Shown piece after piece: positions 23,898 through 35,260 of a DNA stretch of 64,000 nucleotides (positions are counted from its first letter, which is position 1; every line of letters begins with the position of its first letter). Made by a program: the position numbers and the translations under genes. Source of the stretch: Escherichia phage naam. Where the stretch lies: the sequence record MN850630.1; one strand, written 5' to 3'. A model generated the notes under the pieces. The model saw nothing but the letters and a program-made list of their open reading frames with translations, ran no database searches and was not told the DNA's origin.

Positions 23898-24110
23898 ATG
23901 GATTTCCTCCTTTTGATATTTTACCTACCAGGATATTTTAAAATCCTTAGAAAATCAGAAAATGGATCGAAAACTAAAATGGATTTTTCAGAGCAGGCAC
24001 GACGAGATGAACCACTCATCCTATCGTCTGCACCATATTCCAGACCACCATTACAGATTTCCCGCACATGCTCACACCCTTCTACTAGAACTTCCCCCAC
24101 TTACCCTTGA
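23898..24110 (+). CDS. hypothetical protein (doubtful)
   Basis: ATG after AGGAGG, but the ORF sits in a repeat-rich region and the RBS doubles as a hairpin arm. Confidence 0.25.
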   Translation: MDFLLLIFYLPGYFKILRKSENGSKTKMDFSEQARRDEPLILSSAPYSRPPLQISRTCSHPSTRTSPTYP

Positions 24111-24457
24111 CCTTTTATAGTAATAATCCAACCACTACCTTGAAGTTGTGGCGCAGCTTTCCAAGTACTCGATCTGTTTTTCGTTTCAAAGATTGAATTT
24201 TCTGAAAATTTTTCTCGATAAATTTCTCAGTACTCGATCTGTTTTTCGTTTTCTGAATCGGATTTTCTGGAAATCGTTCCGGCTCTCGACCTGAAATTTT
24301 TGGGGACGAAATCGATTTTTCGTTTTCAGAAATGGATTTTTAAAATTTCTATATGGGAATATTTTAGTGGATACTATTTTATAGGAAATTGTTACGGAGG
24401 GTAATTAGCGTGCTAATTAAATTTATTAAATGCGAGGAGTTCTCATTTAGAATTTTG

Positions 24458-24470
24458 AATGATAATCATT
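24458..24470. promoter_or_regulatory. Fur-box-like palindrome AATGATAATCATT
   Basis: Perfect 13-bp palindrome matching the core of the Fur consensus GATAATGATAATCATTATC (15 of 19 with flanks); a second GATAATGATAAC copy lies at 24588..24602. Confidence 0.3.
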
Positions 24471-24487
24471 CTCGTTTGCAGAATAAC

Positions 24488-24529
24488 GGGCAGGCCCGGT
24501 GATTGTCTCCCGGCCCCTGTTGCCCCGGC
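24488..24529 (+). repeat. GC-rich conserved element (core GGTGATTGTCTCCC)
   Basis: Related copy at 24621..24670 (GGTGGTTGTCTCCCCC) and an inverted copy at 33922..33947 (GGGGGAGACAATCACCAGGCCTGCC). Confidence 0.5.
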
Positions 24530-24866
24530 TTGTTATTATAGTATCACACAGGACAAAGAAGGCAAGGATTTTTTGCATAAATTTTTAAATGATAATGATA
24601 ACCGTTCTCATTTTATGCAGCGCCCATCCCCGGTGGTTGTCTCCCCCGTCACCGGTGCCTGCCGTCCTTTCGATAGGTATATTGTGCCACCTGGCGGGGC
24701 CGCTGTCAACACCTTTTCAAAAAATTTTTCTAACCTGATGCGCTAACCGTTGCAACCTGGCGGGGCCAGCCTGGCAGGACCTAACTGACCAGGTGGGAGA
24801 GGGTGAAATCTTGCAAACCTGGTAGGCCCATGCTGTAGGGTAAACAATTGAAGAGGAGGTACAAAA

Positions 24867-25793: not shown

Positions 25794-25821
25794 TTGACAC
25801 GCTGCAAAATTTAAGTAAACT
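25794..25821 (+). promoter_or_regulatory. sigma70-like promoter with 5' leader hairpin
   Basis: TTGACA, 16-bp spacer, TAAACT; leader stem-loop GGCGGGAATGTTTCCCGCC before the RBS. Confidence 0.5.
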
Positions 25822-25869
25822 AGACACAAAAGGCGGGAATGTTTCCCGCCAGCACAAAGGAAAAAGATC

Positions 25870-26265
25870 ATGAATAAGAACGTACGCCGCATCATGAACG
25901 AACTGGCAAACGATGAAAAAATTATTGATATGCATTTGGTCAACATTTGCCGCCGTTGTGTAACATATAACAACCGCGCCGCAAAAGCGCGTGAGATGAA
26001 CGCAAAAGGCACCTTAAAGCCCTTTCAGGTGGTTGTAAAATCTATAACTAGCGCAGCAGGCCAGGCGCAGGACCACAACAACGAGAGCGCTAATATTGAT
26101 CCGTCTTACGTAATGAAACGGATCCGGACTTGCAAGAATAAAGAGCAGGTATATAACGTCATAGATTGGCTGGACTCCCTGGGCGATGTGGTTTACAATA
26201 GGTTTTCTGCAGCTATCGAGATCCAGCTTGACAGATTGGACGGGAAAGTACTAAAAACTTATTGA
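25870..26265 (+). CDS. hypothetical protein
   Basis: AAGGAAAAAG RBS; 131 aa. Confidence 0.6.
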   Translation: MNKNVRRIMNELANDEKIIDMHLVNICRRCVTYNNRAAKAREMNAKGTLKPFQVVVKSITSAAGQAQDHNNESANIDPSYVMKRIRTCKNKEQVYNVIDWLDSLGDVVYNRFSAAIEIQLDRLDGKVLKTY

Positions 26266-26267
26266 GT

Positions 26268-26311
26268 TTATTTTTAGATGGCCTTGACACCAGGGCCATC
26301 AATAAAGTAAA
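26268..26311 (+). promoter_or_regulatory. conserved 44-bp promoter cassette, copy 1
   Basis: TTATTTTTAGATGGCCTTGACACCAGGGCCATCAATAAAGTAAA; inverted repeat GATGGCC/GGCCATC flanks the -35 TTGACA; near-identical copies at 26889 and 30628. Confidence 0.55.
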
Positions 26312-26345
26312 CTAACCACAGTTGAGCGGAAAAGGAGGCTTAAAG

Positions 26346-26465
26346 ATGAGCACTACACGCCAGCACACAAAGGTAACCATCATCGTTTGCATCATTGGGT
26401 ACATCCTGGCGCAAATGTTGATGGGTAGCGCCAACGGTGTCGCAAAATTTTTCTTAAACTTTTAA
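26346..26465 (+). CDS. small hydrophobic peptide (39 aa; not in ORF track)
   Basis: ATG 7 nt after AGGAGG; MSTTRQHTKVTIIVCIIGYILAQMLMGSANGVAKFFLNF. Confidence 0.5.
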   Translation: MSTTRQHTKVTIIVCIIGYILAQMLMGSANGVAKFFLNF

Positions 26466-26493
26466 TTGACAAGCTAACTTAAATCGATATAAT
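26466..26493 (+). promoter_or_regulatory. sigma70-like promoter (consensus)
   Basis: TTGACA, 16-bp spacer, TATAAT. Confidence 0.6.
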
Positions 26494-26544
26494 AAGCACA
26501 TAAACGGGAAAACTTCCCAGAACACACAAAAGGAGAAAAACACC

Positions 26545-26886
26545 ATGACTACTATGACCGCCTCAGAAAAAGCTATGCAGATCGCTGAACTGAAAAAACA
26601 GATCGCAGACCTTGAGAATAAGATCGATAACTTTGAAATCGACGAGGACAAGTACGACGAAAACTATGATGAATGGTTAGACGAGATCTACGGCGAAATT
26701 ATGATCGGAAACATTTCTTTTCTTCCGTCGCGTATCCTCAAGGAGCTAGATCCTATCGCTTACCGCTGCGGATTTAGCGACTACATCGACAGCCTGGATA
26801 TTGAGGACGATGAAGAATACCAGGAATTACAGACAGAGTTAGAAGAAGCAAAAGAAGAGCTTGCGGAGCTGGAAGAAAACGAGTAA
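26545..26886 (+). CDS. highly acidic coiled-coil protein
   Basis: AAGGAGAAAAA RBS; 113 aa, strongly D/E-rich. Confidence 0.6.
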   Translation: MTTMTASEKAMQIAELKKQIADLENKIDNFEIDEDKYDENYDEWLDEIYGEIMIGNISFLPSRILKELDPIAYRCGFSDYIDSLDIEDDEEYQELQTELEEAKEELAELEENE

Positions 26887-26888
26887 GC

Positions 26889-26932
26889 TTATTTTTAGAT
26901 GGCCTTGACACCAGGGCCATCAATAAAGTAAA
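26889..26932 (+). promoter_or_regulatory. conserved 44-bp promoter cassette, copy 2
   Basis: Identical to copy 1 across the palindrome and -35. Confidence 0.55.
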
Positions 26933-26975
26933 CTTTATACTGTTAACACTGAACTAATGCATAGGAGTTAAAACC

Positions 26976-27221
26976 ATGGCAGCACTAATCACCAAATATT
27001 ATGCCCCTACCAACACCAAAAGCGCCCGTATCATGGTAAAAGGCTTCGGACGTAAAAAGGTGTACACCTGGGATTATGCCTTAGACACGGAAGACAACTA
27101 CACCAACGCGATGACCGATTTTATTAATGATCTGAACACGCGGATCTTGACAAATTATAAAATTACCGATATTGCCTATATAGGGGAAGGCGGGATCTGT
27201 TTTGTCGGTATCGTCAAATAA
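26976..27221 (+). CDS. hypothetical protein
   Basis: TAGGAG RBS; 81 aa. Confidence 0.6.
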   Translation: MAALITKYYAPTNTKSARIMVKGFGRKKVYTWDYALDTEDNYTNAMTDFINDLNTRILTNYKITDIAYIGEGGICFVGIVK

Positions 27222-27296
27222 GCTGTTTTTTCGGTGGTCCTGGTAGCAGGGCCATCTATAAAGATAGTTTATCAATACAATGAAAGGAGAAAGTAC

Positions 27297-27650
27297 ATGA
27301 TCAGCGGGGCAAGTTTTATTATTGGCGCTATTGCTACGGCTTTAATTGTAAACAAGATCCAATCTAAAAACGAAAAAGATAGCAACGCCCTTACAGAATA
27401 CCCGTTTTGGGTATTCAACGACAATGAAGACTATATTATCAAGTACAAGAATGAGAAGGGCGACCAGGTAACACCGCGACCGATCCCGGCTTACAAGATG
27501 CAAGAAACACTATACCGCCTAAAGGCTGGAGGCGCAAAAATCGTAGACTTTTGGGGATACGATCACACAGATCAGGAAGTTATAAAGCGCCGTATCCGGG
27601 CTATTCAGGCCAATATTGAAGTTAGCAAGGGGGGAATATATGAAGATTAA
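27297..27650 (+). CDS. hypothetical membrane protein
   Basis: ATG after AAAGGAGAAAG; N-terminal helix ASFIIGAIATALIV; track ORF 27234..27650. Confidence 0.55.
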   Translation: MISGASFIIGAIATALIVNKIQSKNEKDSNALTEYPFWVFNDNEDYIIKYKNEKGDQVTPRPIPAYKMQETLYRLKAGGAKIVDFWGYDHTDQEVIKRRIRAIQANIEVSKGGIYED

Positions 27651-27837
27651 TTTTGAGAAGATTGTAAAGCGATCTCATGATTCCGAAGAGCTGCCGGAAC
27701 GCCGCCAGCGCAACAATAAACTGAATAAGCCAAAAAGATTTGGGAAGATCTGGCGGAATCATTATGATCGCAAATTACCGGGCCTGCTTTTGGAACGTGA
27801 ACGACAGGCGGAACGATACCGCCACAAAGGCAAATAA
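27640..27837 (+). CDS. hypothetical basic protein
   Basis: ATG after GGGGGGA; Arg/Lys-rich; track ORF 27616..27837. Confidence 0.45.
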   Translation: MKINFEKIVKRSHDSEELPERRQRNNKLNKPKRFGKIWRNHYDRKLPGLLLERERQAERYRHKGK

Positions 27838-27845
27838 CAACCAAC

Positions 27846-27874
27846 GCCCCGCCATTGTGCGGGGCTTTTTATTT
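27846..27874 (+). terminator. rho-independent terminator
   Basis: Stem gccccgc / gcggggc with cattgt loop, then TTTTTATTT. Confidence 0.7.
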
Positions 27875-28018
27875 CTATCCTACGAATAGCGCCCCTGGTT
27901 GGCCCTGTAAGCGCCAAAAAGGCCCCACCTATACAATCGCCCCCCTTTAACCTGAAAACATCGCTTAGGGCCGTTTTATGGCGTTAAAAATATCATTGAC
28001 AGTGATTTTATTTAAAGC

Positions 28019-28046
28019 TTGACATCTTAAACAGGTTAGCTATACT
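28019..28046 (+). promoter_or_regulatory. sigma70-like promoter
   Basis: TTGACA, 16-bp spacer, TATACT; a second TTGACA lies 23 bp upstream. Confidence 0.55.
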
Positions 28047-28078
28047 AACCACATCAAAGAGAGAAAGGAGTAAACGCC

Positions 28079-28339
28079 ATGCGTAAATTAAAAAATTTTG
28101 ATAAAGTTGATGTTGTCCTGAATAATTTTTACTACTGCAACAACAAGGCCATTTGGTGGCGTGATAGTTCCACCGATAAAGTTAAAGCTCGCTTTCTCCA
28201 AGGGCACTGGCAAGGCCGTCCAGTGATTAAAATACTGGGGCAACTGGTAGCGTTTAAAAATTGCCGCCGTGTTGATGACGTTGAAGAGATCTTGAACATT
28301 TTACGCCACAATAATTTAAAAAATAGTGTTGACAAGTAA
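28079..28339 (+). CDS. hypothetical protein
   Basis: AAAGGAG RBS; 86 aa. Confidence 0.6.
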   Translation: MRKLKNFDKVDVVLNNFYYCNNKAIWWRDSSTDKVKARFLQGHWQGRPVIKILGQLVAFKNCRRVDDVEEILNILRHNNLKNSVDK

Positions 28340-28356
28340 ATCTCGATAAGTATACT
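28329..28356 (+). promoter_or_regulatory. sigma70-like promoter with 5' leader hairpin
   Basis: TTGACA, 16-bp spacer, TATACT; leader GGCGGGAAAACTTCCCGCC. Confidence 0.55.
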
Positions 28357-28413
28357 TAAACACACAGGCGGGAAAACTTCCCGCCACTAACAAAGAAAAT
28401 AGGAGAAAATATC

Positions 28414-29037
28414 ATGACCACCGTTAACATTACCACAGGTTACAATTTATCTTTCGACGTGCTGACCGACGAACAAAAAGAAAAAGCTATTGAAATGGTC
28501 CGCGAAAGAGAAGAACACAGCGGGGATAATTTTTTTGCAGAAAGTGTAATTGAACACTATAAAGAATATGTCTTTCCAGAGTACGGCCTTGAAGATACCG
28601 AAGTACGTTGGTCCGGCTTTTGGTGTCAAGGCGATGGCGCGTCAATCAGTGCTGAAAACGTGGATTTAGAAAAATTCTTGCGTAAAGTAAAGGCCCTGAC
28701 CAAGTTCCGATCAATTCGTCACTTGTTCGGCACAATGCACGATGGCGAGTTATCAGCCAGTGTTGAACGTATCCCGTTTAGCCATTATCATCACGAAAAC
28801 ACAATAGGAGGGTGCATCGATACTAATTGGCTAGACCTGACCACCAAGCAAGAGGACAAAGTTGAAGAGCTGGAAGAGCTGATCACCGAGACGGTACGGG
28901 AGCTATCACGCAAGGTTTACGTAGACCTGGAGGAGGCCTATCTTGAACAGTTTACTACCGAAAACCTGATCGGCCTTATTGAAGCCAATGATTGGCGGTT
29001 TGATGTGGATGAATATGGGGAGATGAGTTTTTCATAA
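28414..29037 (+). CDS. hypothetical protein
   Basis: TAGGAGA RBS; 207 aa. Confidence 0.65.
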   Translation: MTTVNITTGYNLSFDVLTDEQKEKAIEMVREREEHSGDNFFAESVIEHYKEYVFPEYGLEDTEVRWSGFWCQGDGASISAENVDLEKFLRKVKALTKFRSIRHLFGTMHDGELSASVERIPFSHYHHENTIGGCIDTNWLDLTTKQEDKVEELEELITETVRELSRKVYVDLEEAYLEQFTTENLIGLIEANDWRFDVDEYGEMSFS

Positions 29038-29045
29038 ATAAAGTG

Positions 29046-29073
29046 TTGCAATAATCTAAAAACCTGCTATATT
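29046..29073 (+). promoter_or_regulatory. sigma70-like promoter
   Basis: TTGCAA, 16-bp spacer, TATATT; leader hairpin GGGGCGAGATGACTTGCCCC. Confidence 0.45.
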
Positions 29074-29127
29074 AAAAACTCAAGGGGCGAGATGACTTGC
29101 CCCCCACAAAACAAAGAGGAAAACATC

Positions 29128-29508
29128 ATGAAAAACACTACTAAAGCTATTGACACCGTTATGTTTAACCTGGTTACATTCCGTGAAGATATGAAAGATC
29201 TTCCACGTGAAACAGTGTGCGACCATATCGAAAACTATCGCAAACTAATCAAAGAGTTGCCTTTAAAACGTGACCAGTACGCGGCTAACGCTATGCTTAA
29301 CGCCATGATCAAAAAGATGATCCAGTGTGATTTAACTCTGGCCTATGATTATGCAGGCGGTCGTTTTGCAGTATACAATCAGCCCGTGCCCGGTATGAGC
29401 ACCACCGAAGAATTGCACGCGTTAAATCTGAAACAAGATGTATGGGATAACATGCCCCGCGTGGTGGTGTGGGCAGAAAGCGGAAAGATTTACGGCGATA
29501 ATTTTTAA
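29128..29508 (+). CDS. hypothetical protein
   Basis: ATG after AAAGAGGAAAA (track ORF 29092..29508). Confidence 0.6.
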   Translation: MKNTTKAIDTVMFNLVTFREDMKDLPRETVCDHIENYRKLIKELPLKRDQYAANAMLNAMIKKMIQCDLTLAYDYAGGRFAVYNQPVPGMSTTEELHALNLKQDVWDNMPRVVVWAESGKIYGDNF

Positions 29509-29572
29509 TCAGGTAACAGGCGGCATATTTGCCGCCTTATTGTTAAACAGAACTGCAAAAGAGGTACATAGA

Positions 29573-29944
29573 ATGGAATTTATTATTTTGGCTGTAGTAG
29601 TTGCCTTGTTCAACGCCTGGATCGCTGGCAAGATGGGTAGATCCGCCTTTTTATGGTTTATTATATCTATTTTCCTGGGGGTGGTTGCAACTATTGTACT
29701 TGTTATCCTTGCAATTGTTGACAAGGGGAATAATAGAAAGGGTAAAGTATTTTCAGACCTGTACGACGCTCAAACATTTGTCAACGCCTACTACAGCGAT
29801 CTTCCAGTCTCCCTACGTTGCAGCCTTGCACAACAGGTTTTCGATGAAGCTAAAACCAGAGATCACGCCCATGAGATTTGTTTAACTGAGGCGGATCGCC
29901 TATTTGAGAGGAATAGAAAATATGTGGACCAGCCGTTTAAATAA
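29573..29944 (+). CDS. hypothetical membrane protein
   Basis: ATG after AAAGAGG; two hydrophobic helices (FIILAVVVALF, LWFIISIFLGVVATIVLVILAIV); track ORF 29438..29944. Confidence 0.55.
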   Translation: MEFIILAVVVALFNAWIAGKMGRSAFLWFIISIFLGVVATIVLVILAIVDKGNNRKGKVFSDLYDAQTFVNAYYSDLPVSLRCSLAQQVFDEAKTRDHAHEICLTEADRLFERNRKYVDQPFK

Positions 29945-30163
29945 TGCCACGTTAATTAACCCCTTTAGTGAAGATTTGAAGCCAGCCGCCTGGCGGGATG
30001 GATTCAATAACGAAAGCTTTATTTTCAGGCCTGATCTTAAGGAATTTTATAACAATGGATCGAACAACGACAGAGATAATTTTTCTTGTAATGTGCGTGG
30101 TGATAATACTCCTGGGGGCCATTGCAAACCACGTCACTGCTAACAGGAGGAAAGGGGGAGACG

Positions 30164-30283
30164 ATGACACCCAAGGATAAGCCCCGCACCGATAAGGCGC
30201 GCCGTGTTATGGTATGGCTTGAGATCATCGCCCTTGAAATATTGTTAGGCGTAGGGATGTATTTTATCGCTGTAAGTAACTGA
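30164..30283 (+). CDS. small hydrophobic peptide (39 aa; not in ORF track; uncertain)
   Basis: ATG downstream of AGGAGG; hand-translated MTPKDKPRTDKARRVMVWLEIIALEILLGVGMYFIAVSN; ends just before a hairpin. Confidence 0.35.
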   Translation: MTPKDKPRTDKARRVMVWLEIIALEILLGVGMYFIAVSN

Positions 30284-30423
30284 TAACGGCCCCGATCCCT
30301 GGGGCCTAACTTTTCAAATTTTTTTCTCCCTGAGTGTTGCAATCCGATCCAGAATATGGATAATAACAATCAACGGGGAGACACTCCCCACCGCATAGAC
30401 AAAGTTCCAAAAGGAGAAACAAA

Positions 30424-30624
30424 ATGAGCAACAATATCCGCGTTATTAACTTCAAAAAAGAAGAAAAAATTGCCGTGCTGATTGACGGTCAAGAAATCTT
30501 TAAAGGTGATTATGAAGATCATCAAACGGCGATTAGTATCACTCGCGTGATTGGTTACCATAATTTTTACCCTCAAGGCGCTGAGGCAGCAGTAAAACGA
30601 ATTAAAGAGATTGTAGGCCTGTAA
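30424..30624 (+). CDS. hypothetical protein
   Basis: AAAGGAGAAA RBS; 66 aa. Confidence 0.6.
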   Translation: MSNNIRVINFKKEEKIAVLIDGQEIFKGDYEDHQTAISITRVIGYHNFYPQGAEAAVKRIKEIVGL

Positions 30625-30627
30625 AAT

Positions 30628-30671
30628 TTATTTTTAGATGGCCTTGACTCCAGGGCCATCAATAAAGTAAA
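30628..30671 (+). promoter_or_regulatory. conserved 44-bp promoter cassette, copy 3
   Basis: Same palindrome and -35 as copies 1 and 2, with TTGACT. Confidence 0.55.
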
Positions 30672-30715
30672 TTTAAACCCTGTTAAAATAATCAGTGCAA
30701 AAAGGAGTAATGATC

Positions 30716-31015
30716 ATGTTTATCCAGGCTAATAATCTTTATTTCTTTGATGGTCAGATCGTAGACGGCGTGGAGGTGGAAATAACCGGGTGCCCTGGCG
30801 GTCAGGTTATGACTTTTCGGAATAATGCCTTTGATGATTCTCATATCGTTATGAGAATGGAAGTTAGTAAGCTGGATGACAAGAAAACACTTATCGACTA
30901 TTCCGTCAAAGATCATCCAGACTACCACATGATCTATGGTGATTTGTGCATTGTTGACCGTGACAAGGTGAACGGCATTGTTATAGCCATTGTGAACGAT
31001 GTTTTCTCTGAATAA
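30716..31015 (+). CDS. hypothetical protein
   Basis: ATG 8 nt after GGAG (track ORF 30695..31015). Confidence 0.55.
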   Translation: MFIQANNLYFFDGQIVDGVEVEITGCPGGQVMTFRNNAFDDSHIVMRMEVSKLDDKKTLIDYSVKDHPDYHMIYGDLCIVDRDKVNGIVIAIVNDVFSE

Positions 31016-31074
31016 TTCCGGCAAATGATGCAAAATAAGGCCCCTAGCAGGGCCTGCAGCGATATAATCACATA

Positions 31075-31108: not shown

Positions 31109-31239
31109 GCGTTACAGCGGCCCCAAGGCGCTTAAAAAATTTTTAAAGAAGTACTTGCATCAAGTCCTACAATATGGATAATAGGACGTGTCAGGGGGGC
31201 GGCCCCCAATCATTAACCGGATAGATAGGAGTTAAAATC

Positions 31240-31817: not shown

Positions 31818-31845
31818 TTGACATGGCCTTATAAGACTGTAGAAT
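31818..31845 (+). promoter_or_regulatory. sigma70-like promoter
   Basis: TTGACA, 16-bp spacer, TAGAAT; the track ORF 31818..32072 begins on the -35 TTG. Confidence 0.55.
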
Positions 31846-31892
31846 ATAAATCAAAGGGGCAAGCCCCATCAACGGCAAAGAGGATAAAAATC

Positions 31893-32072: not shown

Positions 32073-32163
32073 AATAGTTTGACAACAAACAACCATCTAA
32101 CAAAGCATAACACATAAGGTGGTAGAATGATCCGCCACCTGGAACAAAGAAGAGGTAAACACC

Positions 32164-32409
32164 ATGAAAAGCAATAAAGGTTATAACGGTTACAAAAACA
32201 AAACTCATTGGAATGTAAGCCTTTGGATTAATAACGATGAGTCCTTGTACCGGTTGGCCCAAGGCTTTATTAACGCTAATGCTAATCGTAATGATGCGGC
32301 GCGGGATATGATGCTTTTTCTGGAGCTAACCGGACAAGATAAGACCCCGGACGGCTTCAAGTACAGCACTACGGCGATCCGTGCCGCGATGGTTGGAATG
32401 AAACACTAA
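32164..32409 (+). CDS. hypothetical protein
   Basis: AAGAGG RBS; 81 aa. Confidence 0.6.
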   Translation: MKSNKGYNGYKNKTHWNVSLWINNDESLYRLAQGFINANANRNDAARDMMLFLELTGQDKTPDGFKYSTTAIRAAMVGMKH

Positions 32410-32486
32410 AAGCACATAGCCGCCTTACCCTGGGGCTGTAGTAGCGGTCCCATGAATAAGGTTACTAACAGAAGAGAATAAACACC

Positions 32487-32591
32487 ATGAAACAGAAATT
32501 AATTGATGCGGTGATCCTGGTTATTGCCCTGGGTATTGGCCTGATTGCAACCATGGCTAATGTGATCTTGTCTTCCAACGGTATCGGGTGA
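32487..32591 (+). CDS. small membrane peptide (34 aa; not in ORF track)
   Basis: ATG after GAAGAGAA; MKQKLIDAVILVIALGIGLIATMANVILSSNGIG. Confidence 0.4.
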   Translation: MKQKLIDAVILVIALGIGLIATMANVILSSNGIG

Positions 32592-33529: not shown

Positions 33530-33837
33530 TCGCTATTACGCCAACCGTTTTAGATTGGTATCGGCAACGCATAGCGCCTCCGCTGGCTATCTTCAAAGAT
33601 GCGGAAGCAAAACAACGCCGGATCTCAATACATGAGATCATCAACCTTAACGCTGGAGGCACACCATACCGCCCAGGACCTGGCCGTGAGATGGACAATA
33701 CGTTAGCGATCCTGAAGATACGCCGTAAACGGTCCTCCCTTACGCTGGACTCATTACACACAATGCAGCCTCCGTTCCAGGTGACCGGGAAACGGATCGC
33801 CAGGTCCTGGACAAAGGCCAATGATCGGACCGTATAA
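33526..33837 (+). CDS. hypothetical protein
   Basis: ATGA coupling; 103 aa. Confidence 0.5.
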   Translation: MIAITPTVLDWYRQRIAPPLAIFKDAEAKQRRISIHEIINLNAGGTPYRPGPGREMDNTLAILKIRRKRSSLTLDSLHTMQPPFQVTGKRIARSWTKANDRTV

Positions 33838-33971
33838 ATAAAAGTGTTTTGGTACTGATTTTGGGGTTGACTTGTTCGGCCCCTTTTGCTATTCTTATTA
33901 AACGGGCGGCACTTGGGAACAGGGGGAGACAATCACCAGGCCTGCCTGTCATATAAGAACTATAAAAACCG

Positions 33972-34000
33972 TTGACATCTGCCATGGGGTGAGGTAACAT
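33972..34000 (+). promoter_or_regulatory. sigma70-like promoter with leader hairpin
   Basis: TTGACA, 17-bp spacer, TAACAT; leader GGGGCAAAAGTGCCC. Confidence 0.5.
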
Positions 34001-34054
34001 TTATCTTGAAGGGGCAAAAGTGCCCACACAACAACCAGAAGAGAGGAAAACATT

Positions 34055-34327
34055 ATGTCAAGCTGGATTAATCAAGAAGTCGAATCACGTTTTAATGCTA
34101 TTTGGGATCTCATCGAAAAAGAGGACGGAACATCAAGCCCTTATCTCAATAATCTTGAATTCCATTTCGTGGAAGCGATGAACGCAGAACATGATCACGA
34201 AGGTGGTGCGGATGAATTCGCTAAAGGATATGGCTTCAACAATGCCAACGAAATGATCGAGGCGGTTGTACTCCAGGCTGAGGAAGATTATCAATTAAAA
34301 ACGCTTGAATTCTGCCGCCGTAAGTAA
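34055..34327 (+). CDS. hypothetical protein
   Basis: AGAGAGGAAAA RBS; 90 aa. Confidence 0.6.
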   Translation: MSSWINQEVESRFNAIWDLIEKEDGTSSPYLNNLEFHFVEAMNAEHDHEGGADEFAKGYGFNNANEMIEAVVLQAEEDYQLKTLEFCRRK

Positions 34328-34389
34328 TAAGATAATGACACGGGCCAAAAGGCCCACTAAACAAAAACCACATAAAGAGGAAAAACATC

Positions 34390-34653
34390 ATGAAACGCCT
34401 TGATCAGCTCAAATTAGTTCAATATATGGCTTATCGTGTTCTTGAAGTCCAGAAAGGTAGCAAAAAAGAGGTTTGCGAGAAAGCTTATAAGATCTTCACT
34501 CGCAAAAAAGATGACTGGATGCTACGCCAGACCAAAAAGGCTGACATCTTGGGGTACCTGGAAGAAGAGATCCGCCTTGAAGAGCAAGAAGAGATCCGCC
34601 GTAGTGAGGCAGATTATCAGGCAGCTTGGGAAAACTGGATGAGCAACAAATAA
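34390..34653 (+). CDS. hypothetical protein
   Basis: AAAGAGGAAAAA RBS; 87 aa. Confidence 0.6.
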   Translation: MKRLDQLKLVQYMAYRVLEVQKGSKKEVCEKAYKIFTRKKDDWMLRQTKKADILGYLEEEIRLEEQEEIRRSEADYQAAWENWMSNK

Positions 34654-34719
34654 TACAACAAGTTACGGTCAGGGGGGTAATAAAGCCCCTTGATCGCATA
34701 AAAATTATGCCATCTCTGG

Positions 34720-34748
34720 TTGACAGGGATCGGCAGTTTTGCTATATT
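34720..34748 (+). promoter_or_regulatory. sigma70-like promoter
   Basis: TTGACA, 17-bp spacer, TATATT. Confidence 0.55.
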
Positions 34749-34797
34749 CTTTTTTGAAGGGAAGTTGTAAGAAAATTAACTAAGAGGTAAAAACACC

Positions 34798-35217
34798 ATG
34801 AACATTAAATCTAATAATCCGGCATATAGCTTTGATAACGCTTTTTGTCACGGTCCGGCGGCGAAAGGATTCGAAATCGATGGTAAACTAATTATTGTCA
34901 ATGTTGACGGGGAAGAGGTTGCAGTATATCCGGTGGCAGACGTAAAAAGCCGTTTACAATGCCGCATGGATGTTACCGCCTATCAGCTTGATCCGGTCCG
35001 CATAGTTGCCCTGGTCCTGGAAGAAGAAATTAAAGCCATGCACCATAGCAACAGATTTATTGGTGACGCGCAGGATAATATGAAAGTATGCCGCCATAAA
35101 GTTAATGAAGTGCTTAAAGAGTACGGCTATAAAGATCTTATGATCAAACGTGAGGAAAAATTCCGCTACCGTAACGACCTGGCAAATCGGATTTTTGAAA
35201 TATACGAATCATTATAA
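34798..35217 (+). CDS. hypothetical protein
   Basis: AAGAGG RBS; 139 aa; last gene of the plus-strand block. Confidence 0.6.
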   Translation: MNIKSNNPAYSFDNAFCHGPAAKGFEIDGKLIIVNVDGEEVAVYPVADVKSRLQCRMDVTAYQLDPVRIVALVLEEEIKAMHHSNRFIGDAQDNMKVCRHKVNEVLKEYGYKDLMIKREEKFRYRNDLANRIFEIYESL

Positions 35218-35235
35218 TTTTTTAACTGAATTATC

Positions 35236-35260
35236 AAGGGGCTTAGGCCCCTTTCTTTTT
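35236..35260 (+). terminator. rho-independent terminator ending the plus-strand block
   Basis: Stem aaggggc / gcccctt then TCTTTTTG. Confidence 0.65.

Follow-up and report, generated by a model that had tools for sequence, protein, structure and literature searches.

Cassettes that combine an early promoter with a stem-loop have been described in T4-type phages (RB49/phi1, T4/PST and KVP40/nt-1) as promoter-early stem-loops, or PeSLs (Arbiol et al. 2010, PMC2839356; Comeau et al. 2014, PMC4122927). In a PeSL, an AT-rich tract with an upstream stop codon is followed by sigma-70 boxes, a stem-loop with G-T pairs that may overlap the -35 or -10 box, and then a Shine-Dalgarno (SD) sequence and an ATG (PMC2839356). 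PeSLs cluster before ORFans in hyperplastic regions, with indel junctions located within the motifs, and their promoter activity, termination and formation of mini-circles were shown by experiment (PMC2839356). Here we describe four copies of a 49-nt intergenic cassette in a 64,000-nt stretch of Escherichia phage naam (MN850630.1), an rV5-like (Vequintavirus) coliphage; this stretch is hereafter called the window. The cassettes appear closest to PeSLs among known systems. Both are intergenic motifs of about 50 bp in which an upstream stop codon leads into an AT-rich tract, sigma-70-like boxes with a stem-loop that may overlap them, an SD sequence and an ATG; both precede ORFans in a hyperplastic region; and in both, indels or replacements between close relatives join within the motifs. 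All of these features were found here, the boxes in the A-type copies defined below. A literature search returned no paper describing such cassettes in rV5-like phages.

The two systems also differ. The cassettes occur in Vequintavirinae and not in T4-like phages, are restricted to the genus Vequintavirus and share no sequence similarity with PeSLs. They form one long two-tier hairpin around both promoter hexamers, whereas a PeSL has a short GGGG/CCCC stem-loop beside or over one box. They lack terminator features, and one copy is a hairpin without a promoter. Finally, they are known from sequence alone, whereas the activities of PeSLs are experimental.

A repeat finder returned four copies of the 49-nt unit, with identities to copy 1 of 98% (at 26886), 94% (at 30625) and 69% (at 27221), and a degenerate pattern of the inner palindrome matched the window exactly 4 times against 0.00 expected from 100 shuffles. 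A preliminary description of this DNA had listed three near-identical 44-bp cassettes; these copies, here called A-type, are real and 94-100% identical, but the unit spans 49 nt. The diverged copy that it placed near 27225 is indeed present, at 27221-27269 (B-type). The copies and their flanks are as follows, with energies for the predicted RNA folds.

26265-26313, plus strand: copy 1 (A-type), -35 TTGACA at 26284-26289, -10 TAAACT at 26308-26313; -24.0 kcal/mol, z -8.1
Stems of copy 1: outer 26265-26274/26304-26313, inner 26277-26286/26291-26300, loop 26287-26290
Flanks of copy 1: begins on the last stop-codon base of the gene at 25870-26265; downstream ATG at 26346
26886-26934, plus strand: copy 2 (A-type), -35 at 26905-26910, -10 TAAACT at 26929-26934; -19.8 kcal/mol
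Flanks of copy 2: begins on the last stop-codon base of the gene at 26545-26886; downstream ATG at 26976
30625-30673, plus strand: copy 3 (A-type), -35 TTGACT at 30644-30649, -10 TAAATT at 30668-30673; -21.7 kcal/mol
Flanks of copy 3: follows the stop codon of the gene at 30424-30624; downstream ATG at 30716
27221-27269, plus strand: copy 4 (B-type), CTGGTA-N17-GATAGT, 7/12 matches to the promoter consensus; plus-strand RNA -24.3 kcal/mol
Flanks of copy 4: follows the gene at 26976-27221; downstream ATG at 27297

Every copy begins at, or at most 1 base from, the stop codon of the upstream gene. TGA or TAA is followed by (A/G)NTTATTTTTAG, an AT-rich tract upstream of the -35 that takes in the stop codon, and the SD sequence and ATG lie 28-42 nt downstream of the cassettes. 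The cassette sequence is present in 120 phage records, all of them rV5-like, at about three places each and nowhere else. Several routes to more distant copies were tried and dropped. An inner-palindrome scan of IMG/VR gave 25 loci, among which only L012/L017 (one 137-kb contig) and L016 were rV5-like and the others were single chance or terminator-like matches. A metagenome scan with a 15-base pattern, which is too short, gave only L110 (on the same 137-kb contig) as a real match among the loci listed. The published Certrevirus promoter consensus returned only generic sigma-70 matches in unrelated IMG/VR contigs. The flanking proteins provided no bridge beyond the genus, the 131-aa protein being genus-restricted and homologues of the 81-aa protein lying in other contexts, and a macro-domain protein considered as a route to sister genera matched 2,723 records and was far too widespread.

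As RNA, the full 49 nt are predicted to form a two-tier hairpin in which an A/U-rich outer stem and a GC-rich inner stem, each of 10 bp, are separated by a 2x3 internal loop and capped by a tetraloop. Minimum free energies of the four copies range from -19.8 to -24.3 kcal/mol (z -5.7 to -8.1). In the outer stem, the T-rich tract upstream of the -35 pairs with AAAGTAAACT, which holds the -10; the -10 hexamer thus sits in the 3' arm, opposite the bases just after the stop codon. The -35 had initially been placed inside the loop of the inverted repeat GATGGCC/GGCCATC. The palindrome does surround the -35, but the inner stem (arms GAUGGCCUUG and CAGGGCCAUC) takes in TTG and leaves only AC(N)(N) as the loop, and the second, outer stem of 10 bp had gone unnoticed. 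The hairpin of copy 4 extends to 27218-27272 (23 bp, -27.8 kcal/mol) and includes the stop codon of the gene at 26976-27221. In a scan of the whole window for long hairpins, run at a permissive threshold that admits many coding-region hairpins, the cassettes stand apart by their low GC content (0.31-0.40) combined with the highest stabilities, and no further element of their class was found among the hairpins listed.

To follow the hairpin through evolution, 83 cassette matches were gathered from the window and 20 further rV5-like genomes, and their 31 distinct sequences were aligned. Standard pairs fill 97.9% of the 620 pair cells of the two-tier structure, compared with 35-55% when partners are slid by 1-3 columns. 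None of 500 shuffles matched the observed pairing or covariation score, although these figures are not to be read as probabilities because the signal stems mostly from one old A/B split and about ten events within types. Changes on both sides of a pair occur in the outer stem, at positions 2-48 (G-C/A-U/G-U), 3-47 (U-A/C-G), 5-45 (U-A/G-U/A-U/G-C) and 6-44 (A-U/U-A), and copy 3 carries a compensated outer-stem pair, A-U instead of G-C. Inner-stem pairs 14-35, 18-31, 20-29 and 22-27 vary through G.U only, and every inner-stem position at which the A and B types differ shows a plus-strand transition compatible with wobble pairing.

Copy 4 retains the two-tier fold by means of double changes and five G.U pairs. 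Its plus strand folds at -24.3 kcal/mol as RNA, as stable as the A-type copies, compared with -9.2 kcal/mol and a different fold for the minus strand, and its outer stem is lost with DNA parameters (-7.5). Conserved G.U pairs are therefore sensible only in RNA. The cassettes also outlast the genes around them: in L110, the most divergent genome sampled, identity to the window is 83-92% for genes and 96-100% for cassettes. Because the RNA pairing covaries, copy 4 folds only on the plus strand as RNA and the cassettes outlast the genes, we take the selected object to be the structure of the plus-strand transcript in its own right, rather than a symmetric duplex site. The preliminary description had offered a structural element as one of two options, and this option is strongly supported in the form of a plus-strand RNA hairpin over the whole promoter, by compensatory covariation and by the folds of copy 4 on either strand and with DNA parameters.

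The other option was an embedded operator, with the inverted repeat around the -35 binding a dimeric phage or host repressor or activator of a strong early promoter. The 24-bp inner palindrome does overlap the -35, the classical operator position, and the A-type copies of the 21 genomes show hardly any variation in it. Yet conservation tracks RNA base-pairing and not half-site symmetry, the outer stem covarying by double changes and G.U pairs. Copy 4 keeps its fold after losing the -35/-10 consensus, does not fold in this way on its minus strand, and has in its five G.U pairs as many mismatches in duplex symmetry. Nor did a phage repressor or activator turn up for the palindrome: none of the 10 neighbouring proteins to which the scan was confined matches a DNA-binding family. 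Since the conserved object appears to be a plus-strand RNA structure and not a symmetric duplex, we consider an operator a very improbable explanation.

Cassettes of the A type also carry the hexamers of a sigma-70 promoter. A promoter scan returned TTGACA-N18-TAAACT at copies 1 and 2 (10/12 matches) and TTGACT-N18-TAAATT at copy 3 (9/12). TTGAC is intact in 55 of the 57 near-identical copies from the 21 genomes, whereas the sixth -35 position (column 25) takes all four bases and column 26 takes C or T. This exceeds what the hairpin needs, because a bare tetraloop would let all four loop positions vary. Likewise, pair 20-29 is U.G in the A-type copies, though C-G is accepted in the B type, and this keeps TTGACA intact at its first T. 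For the -10, TAAACT and TAAATT are the only forms seen, and the change between them is mostly compensated on the opposite arm. These data support the three A-type copies as putative sigma-70 early promoters. The strong early promoters proposed at the outset are supported at these copies, by sequence only (hexamers at 9-10/12, TTGAC in 55/57), but not for copy 4, whose boxes reach 7/12; copy 4 looks like a hairpin that lost, or never had, its promoter. A TTGACA at 26228, in the upstream gene, was considered as a promoter that would make copy 1 a 5'-terminal hairpin, and was rejected: copies 2 and 3 have no counterpart, and L016 does not conserve it.

A stable hairpin right after a stop codon could also terminate transcription, as in a classical PeSL: it would stop upstream transcripts, the embedded promoter would restart transcription, and each ORFan module would be insulated. 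Stability fits this model, as do the three of four copies with a promoter able to restart transcription and the finding that the PeSL211/210 stem-loop cut lacZ expression as strongly as rrnB T1 (PMC2839356). The ends of the hairpin do not. There is no U-tract, the inner stem being followed by AAUAAAGUAAAC and the outer stem by the A-rich or mixed tails AACCACAG, UUAUACUG, UAAACCCU or UAUCAAUA. The cassette has its T-run on the 5' side of the hairpin, opposite to the polarity of a terminator, and a scan for hairpins followed by a T-run, which finds canonical terminators such as the one below, flagged none of the four cassettes.

27846-27875, plus strand: canonical intrinsic terminator, GCCCCGC..GCGGGGC followed by TTTTTATTTC, closing the unit that starts at copy 2

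Given the missing U-tract, the T-run on the 5' side and the silent scan, we read the cassette hairpin as no canonical intrinsic terminator. Copy 4 precedes two genes that have no good promoter of their own and end at the terminator at 27846; efficient termination at copy 4 would silence both, so RNA polymerase probably reads through it. The same scan found no terminator between the upstream promoters and the cassettes. Termination or attenuation as the main role of the hairpin is therefore doubtful in our view.

A second role for an inter-cistronic hairpin would be RNA processing. With 10 + 10 bp, about two helical turns, a 2x3 internal loop and a position between cistrons, the cassette has the geometry of an RNase III site. 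For comparison we folded five early T7 RNase III sites (R0.3, R0.5, R1, R1.1 and R1.3), at coordinates that we take to be those of Dunn and Studier (1983), the T7 record used carrying no annotation of them. These folds, which agree with the coordinates, show an upper stem of 9-13 bp with G.U pairs, a loop of 3-5 nt and an A/U-rich 3' flank. The cassette is similar in being inter-cistronic, in the early region of a lytic coliphage and close to promoters, and in having an upper stem of about 10 bp with G.U, a 3-5 nt loop, an A/U-rich 3' side and a helix of about 20 bp in total with an internal loop. It differs in that there is no sequence homology and that the T7 hairpins contain no host promoter. 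Resemblance in geometry suggests that the cassette transcripts could be processed by RNase III.

The preliminary description did not consider recombination, which is evident when close relatives are compared at the cassettes. Copies 1 and 2 enclose a small module.

26314-26885, plus strand: two-gene module between copies 1 and 2, with a 39-aa membrane open reading frame (ORF) at 26346-26465, a consensus promoter at 26466-26493 and a 113-aa ORF at 26545-26886

Phage phiWec189 (L032:1628) and an IMG/VR contig (L016:216) precisely lack these 572 bp (26314-26885) and have a single chimeric cassette, flanked on the left as copy 1 is and on the right as copy 2 is. Their alignment pieces overlap by 61 and 49 nt, the expectation for homologous recombination between repeats. 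In phage V18 the haplotype switches between 27225 and 27245, placing the crossover within 27226-27244, inside copy 4, and resulting in a C.A mismatch at the covarying pair 3-47. In Murica (L033) and phiWec196 (L160), a replacement beginning 17 nt past copy 3 affects the leader and gene that follow it. The genome of the window is mosaic as well: it matches EdH4 without a difference as far as 27109, and rV5_ev147 without a difference from 26911. The last rV5_ev147-type difference, at 26910 in the loop of copy 2, sets the left limit of the boundary. The switch lies at 26911-27109, and as this interval spans 199 nt, a crossover in copy 2 is compatible with it and not proven. The cassettes are thus recombination points in a hyperplastic region. 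The copies within a genome also share variation: two or three paralogous loci are polymorphic for the same alleles (for example the rare T11C in copies 1 and 2 of L160), and paralogs within a genome differ at 2.55 positions compared with 0.86-2.21 for orthologs between genomes. Shared alleles and similar distances together indicate ongoing exchange between the cassette copies.

Junctions of this kind raise the question of a dedicated DNA element, in which the folded plus strand, as single-stranded DNA or a cruciform, would be the substrate of a specific recombinase or of replication template switching, similar to integron attC sites or to palindromic repeats like miniature inverted-repeat transposable elements, with the promoter-like hexamers incidental. 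The position right after stop codons, a structure conserved between A and B types above the level of sequence, the precise cassette-to-cassette deletions, the crossovers inside the element and the homogenised paralogs would all be accommodated. Against this, copy 4 loses its two-tier fold with DNA energy parameters, no target-site duplications are visible at the cassette ends in the 21-genome comparison, no recombinase was found among the 10 block proteins scanned (the rest of the genome was not examined), and ordinary homologous recombination between 49-nt direct repeats suffices for the junctions. We regard such an element as very unlikely. The more radical variant, an attC-like, cassette-specific recombination system operating on the folded strand in a lytic phage, receives hardly any credence from us.

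Taken together, we favour, with a probability of roughly 0.6, a composite, PeSL-type cassette in which regulation and recombination meet: a putative promoter in DNA, a plus-strand hairpin in RNA and a crossover point in the genome. As duplex DNA, the A-type copies would be sigma-70 early promoters in which the T-rich tract is followed by TTGAC(N) and, after 18 nt, by TAAA(C/T)T, and their transcripts would start about 7 nt past the cassette, hence without the hairpin. Transcripts from upstream promoters would read through, and the 49 nt would fold into the 20-bp hairpin right after the stop codon of the upstream cistron. Because the hairpin has no U-tract, it would be a 3'-end or inter-cistronic structure rather than an efficient intrinsic terminator. 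One possible role is to hold up 3' exonucleases; another, which could be combined with the first, is to provide an RNase III-type processing site, parting the cistrons and leaving a protective 3' stem; a third is to mask the A/U-rich promoter sequence from RNase E. Copy 4 would keep the RNA function only. Recurring in direct orientation, the same 49 nt also feed homologous recombination, by which ORFan modules are deleted, replaced and reassorted and the copies homogenised.

A more tentative account would assign one sequence two readings, as a host-type early promoter in DNA and as a dedicated processing or stability signal in RNA, for example an RNase III site. The RNA function would be primary, given that copy 4 keeps the hairpin alone, and RNase III would divide the polycistronic early RNA into single-cistron pieces, each with a protective hairpin at its end. 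We hold this to be possible, at lower confidence than the composite cassette.

Several observations weigh against the composite cassette. Its 18-nt spacer and TAAACT -10 are suboptimal, and the rV5 genome paper and annotation, with 33 promoters and 20 terminators, omit these sites. We found no mapping of transcription starts, RNA 3' ends or cleavage sites in the literature on rV5-like phages. The GenBank record of Murica has 45-nt terminators annotated where copies 4 and 3 lie (L033 10443-10487 and 13830-13874), and because of these labels and the strong termination reported for PeSL stem-loops, attenuation remains a rival. Some copies have mismatches at outer-stem pairs 2-48 and 3-47 (11 of 620 cells), and an inner pair is broken in two single copies. 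All compared genomes belong to one genus (83-100% identity), and independent substitution events are few, namely the A/B split plus roughly ten within types; the shuffle control overstates significance for sequences so related. The near-identity of the copies could result from selection as much as from gene conversion.

The composite cassette also shares features with other repeats and leaders. Bacterial mRNAs are known to carry inter-cistronic or 3' stabilising hairpins, such as the repetitive extragenic palindromic (REP) elements in malEFG, and 5'-terminal stem-loops, as in the 5' untranslated region of ompA. Similar to such stabilisers, a hairpin right after a cistron would stop exonucleases that degrade in the 3'-to-5' direction. 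Unlike the cassette, REP elements are repeats of the host, and they differ from it in sequence and binding proteins. Correia elements of Neisseria carry promoters and, once transcribed, are RNase III substrates. Integron attC sites and Correia elements resemble the cassette as imperfect palindromes after cassette ORFs with strand-specific folded forms, whereas the rV5-like cassette comes without an integrase or transposase among the proteins scanned and without target duplications, and its fold is RNA-specific.

The cassettes lie in a 6.3-kb region that is 94-97% identical to more than 100 rV5-like coliphages, within a block of small genes at 24.8-35.2 kb that matches same-strand, small hypothetical genes in those genomes. 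Ten proteins around the cassettes matched only PHROGs of unknown function, bar one: the 65-aa protein at 27640-27837 matches Pfam PF08200 (bacteriophage T7 protein 1.1) with an E-value of 1.1e-10, above the family cutoff. Small hypothetical genes on a single strand and PHROGs of unknown function identify the block as the putative early ORFan region of a large lytic myovirus. The 81-aa ORFan at 26976-27221 has homologues of 31-47% identity in unrelated phages and differing contexts (CAjan/slur01-type siphoviruses, Pseudomonas KIL and KoPa phages, and one Klebsiella phage), and from this distribution the gene has evidently moved between phage groups. Searching the whole window against Rfam 15 gave no match at the gathering threshold, and nothing at the cassettes even at E <= 1; a tRNA search found nothing.

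The block holds 44 promoter-like sites, an enrichment over the 26.8 +/- 4.6 of shuffled sequence, and the plus strand carries 12 of the 13 best. The preliminary description had seen promoters before most small genes, which is overstated: about 16-18 of 31 plus-strand starts have a site of at least 8-9/12 within 150 nt. It had also put a short GC hairpin after each promoter. This applies to 10 promoters, with the hairpin starting 8-12 nt past the -10, but not to the cassette-driven leaders. The shared SD/leader motif (AGAGGAAAACAYCATG-like) was borne out by repeat families D4-D6, D11 and D16. The block thus appears to use two designs, a promoter followed by a 5'-terminal hairpin (class I) and a promoter inside a hairpin (class II, the cassettes).

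25794-25850, plus strand: class I example, TTGACA-N16-TAAACT with the GC hairpin GGCGGGAATGTTTCCCGCC 10 nt past the -10, a predicted 5'-terminal mRNA stem-loop
26466-26519, 28329-28385, 29046-29103, 30337-30389 and 31155-31207, plus strand: further class I sites of the same design
31818-31867, 32079-32140, 33972-34025 and 34305-34355, plus strand: further class I sites of the same design
25832-25850, 28367-28385, 29084-29103, 30375-30389 and 31194-31207, plus strand: GC hairpins of class I leaders
31856-31867, 32117-32140, 34012-34025 and 34342-34355, plus strand: GC hairpins of class I leaders
32147-32177, plus strand: SD/leader repeat AGAAGAGGTAAACACCATGAAA, with its partner at 32468-32490

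Class I leaders resemble 5' stabilisers in having a GC hairpin a few nt from the predicted 5' end, and these stem-loops could stabilise the mRNA. Several of them are terminator-like on the minus strand, and the EdH4 record labels one as a terminator.

Rearrangements also occur elsewhere in the block. A segment of about 320 bp between the SD/leader repeats, containing the gene at 32164-32409, is absent from eight sampled relatives, with a 32-nt junction overlap (32178/32470). Other points of indel or replacement relative to the sampled genomes lie at 31028/31029, where a 343-355 bp gene of relatives is missing from the window, and at 33531-33884, 34356-34393 and 34691-35237. At several indel junctions in the block, SD/leader or hairpin sequences overlap by 18-38 nt.

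Left of the early block lies a non-coding stretch (23900-24860) with many TTTTC..GAAAA-type motifs and, at 24155-24340, three direct repeats of 47-57 nt at spacings of 65 and 74 nt. This stretch may serve as an origin or in regulation; a 'non-coding' box is mentioned in the rV5 paper. A 29-nt inverted repeat (24483-24511/33924-33952, 90% complementary; also 24629-24647/33922-33940) has its arms 9.4 kb apart, flanking most of the early ORFan block, and a GC-rich motif, ACCTGGCGGGGCC, is repeated in intergenic sites at about 24689, 24756 and 31527. Among the database matches, 17 GenBank records named 'Campylobacter phage' (MG0656xx) are rV5-like coliphage genomes, 91-97% identical to the window. 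Four of these records were examined (L155, L157, L158 and L159) and are marked UNVERIFIED, and the Campylobacter host assignment looks doubtful.

GenBank leaves the cassette sites unannotated or calls them terminators, an annotation that could be improved from the present analysis. In practical terms, the cassettes would show where rV5-like therapeutic phages can safely be engineered by insertion or deletion. They also offer a clean test case and a natural experiment on the role of the stem-loop in RNA, with four copies of which one is a hairpin naturally devoid of a promoter, deletions and crossovers that arose in nature, and over 100 relatives with sequenced genomes. If our interpretation is true, promoter-plus-stem-loop cassettes that regulate and shuffle early ORFans would not be peculiar to T4-type phages, and their independent origin in Vequintavirinae would suggest a general plug-and-play solution for the accessory genes of large lytic phages.

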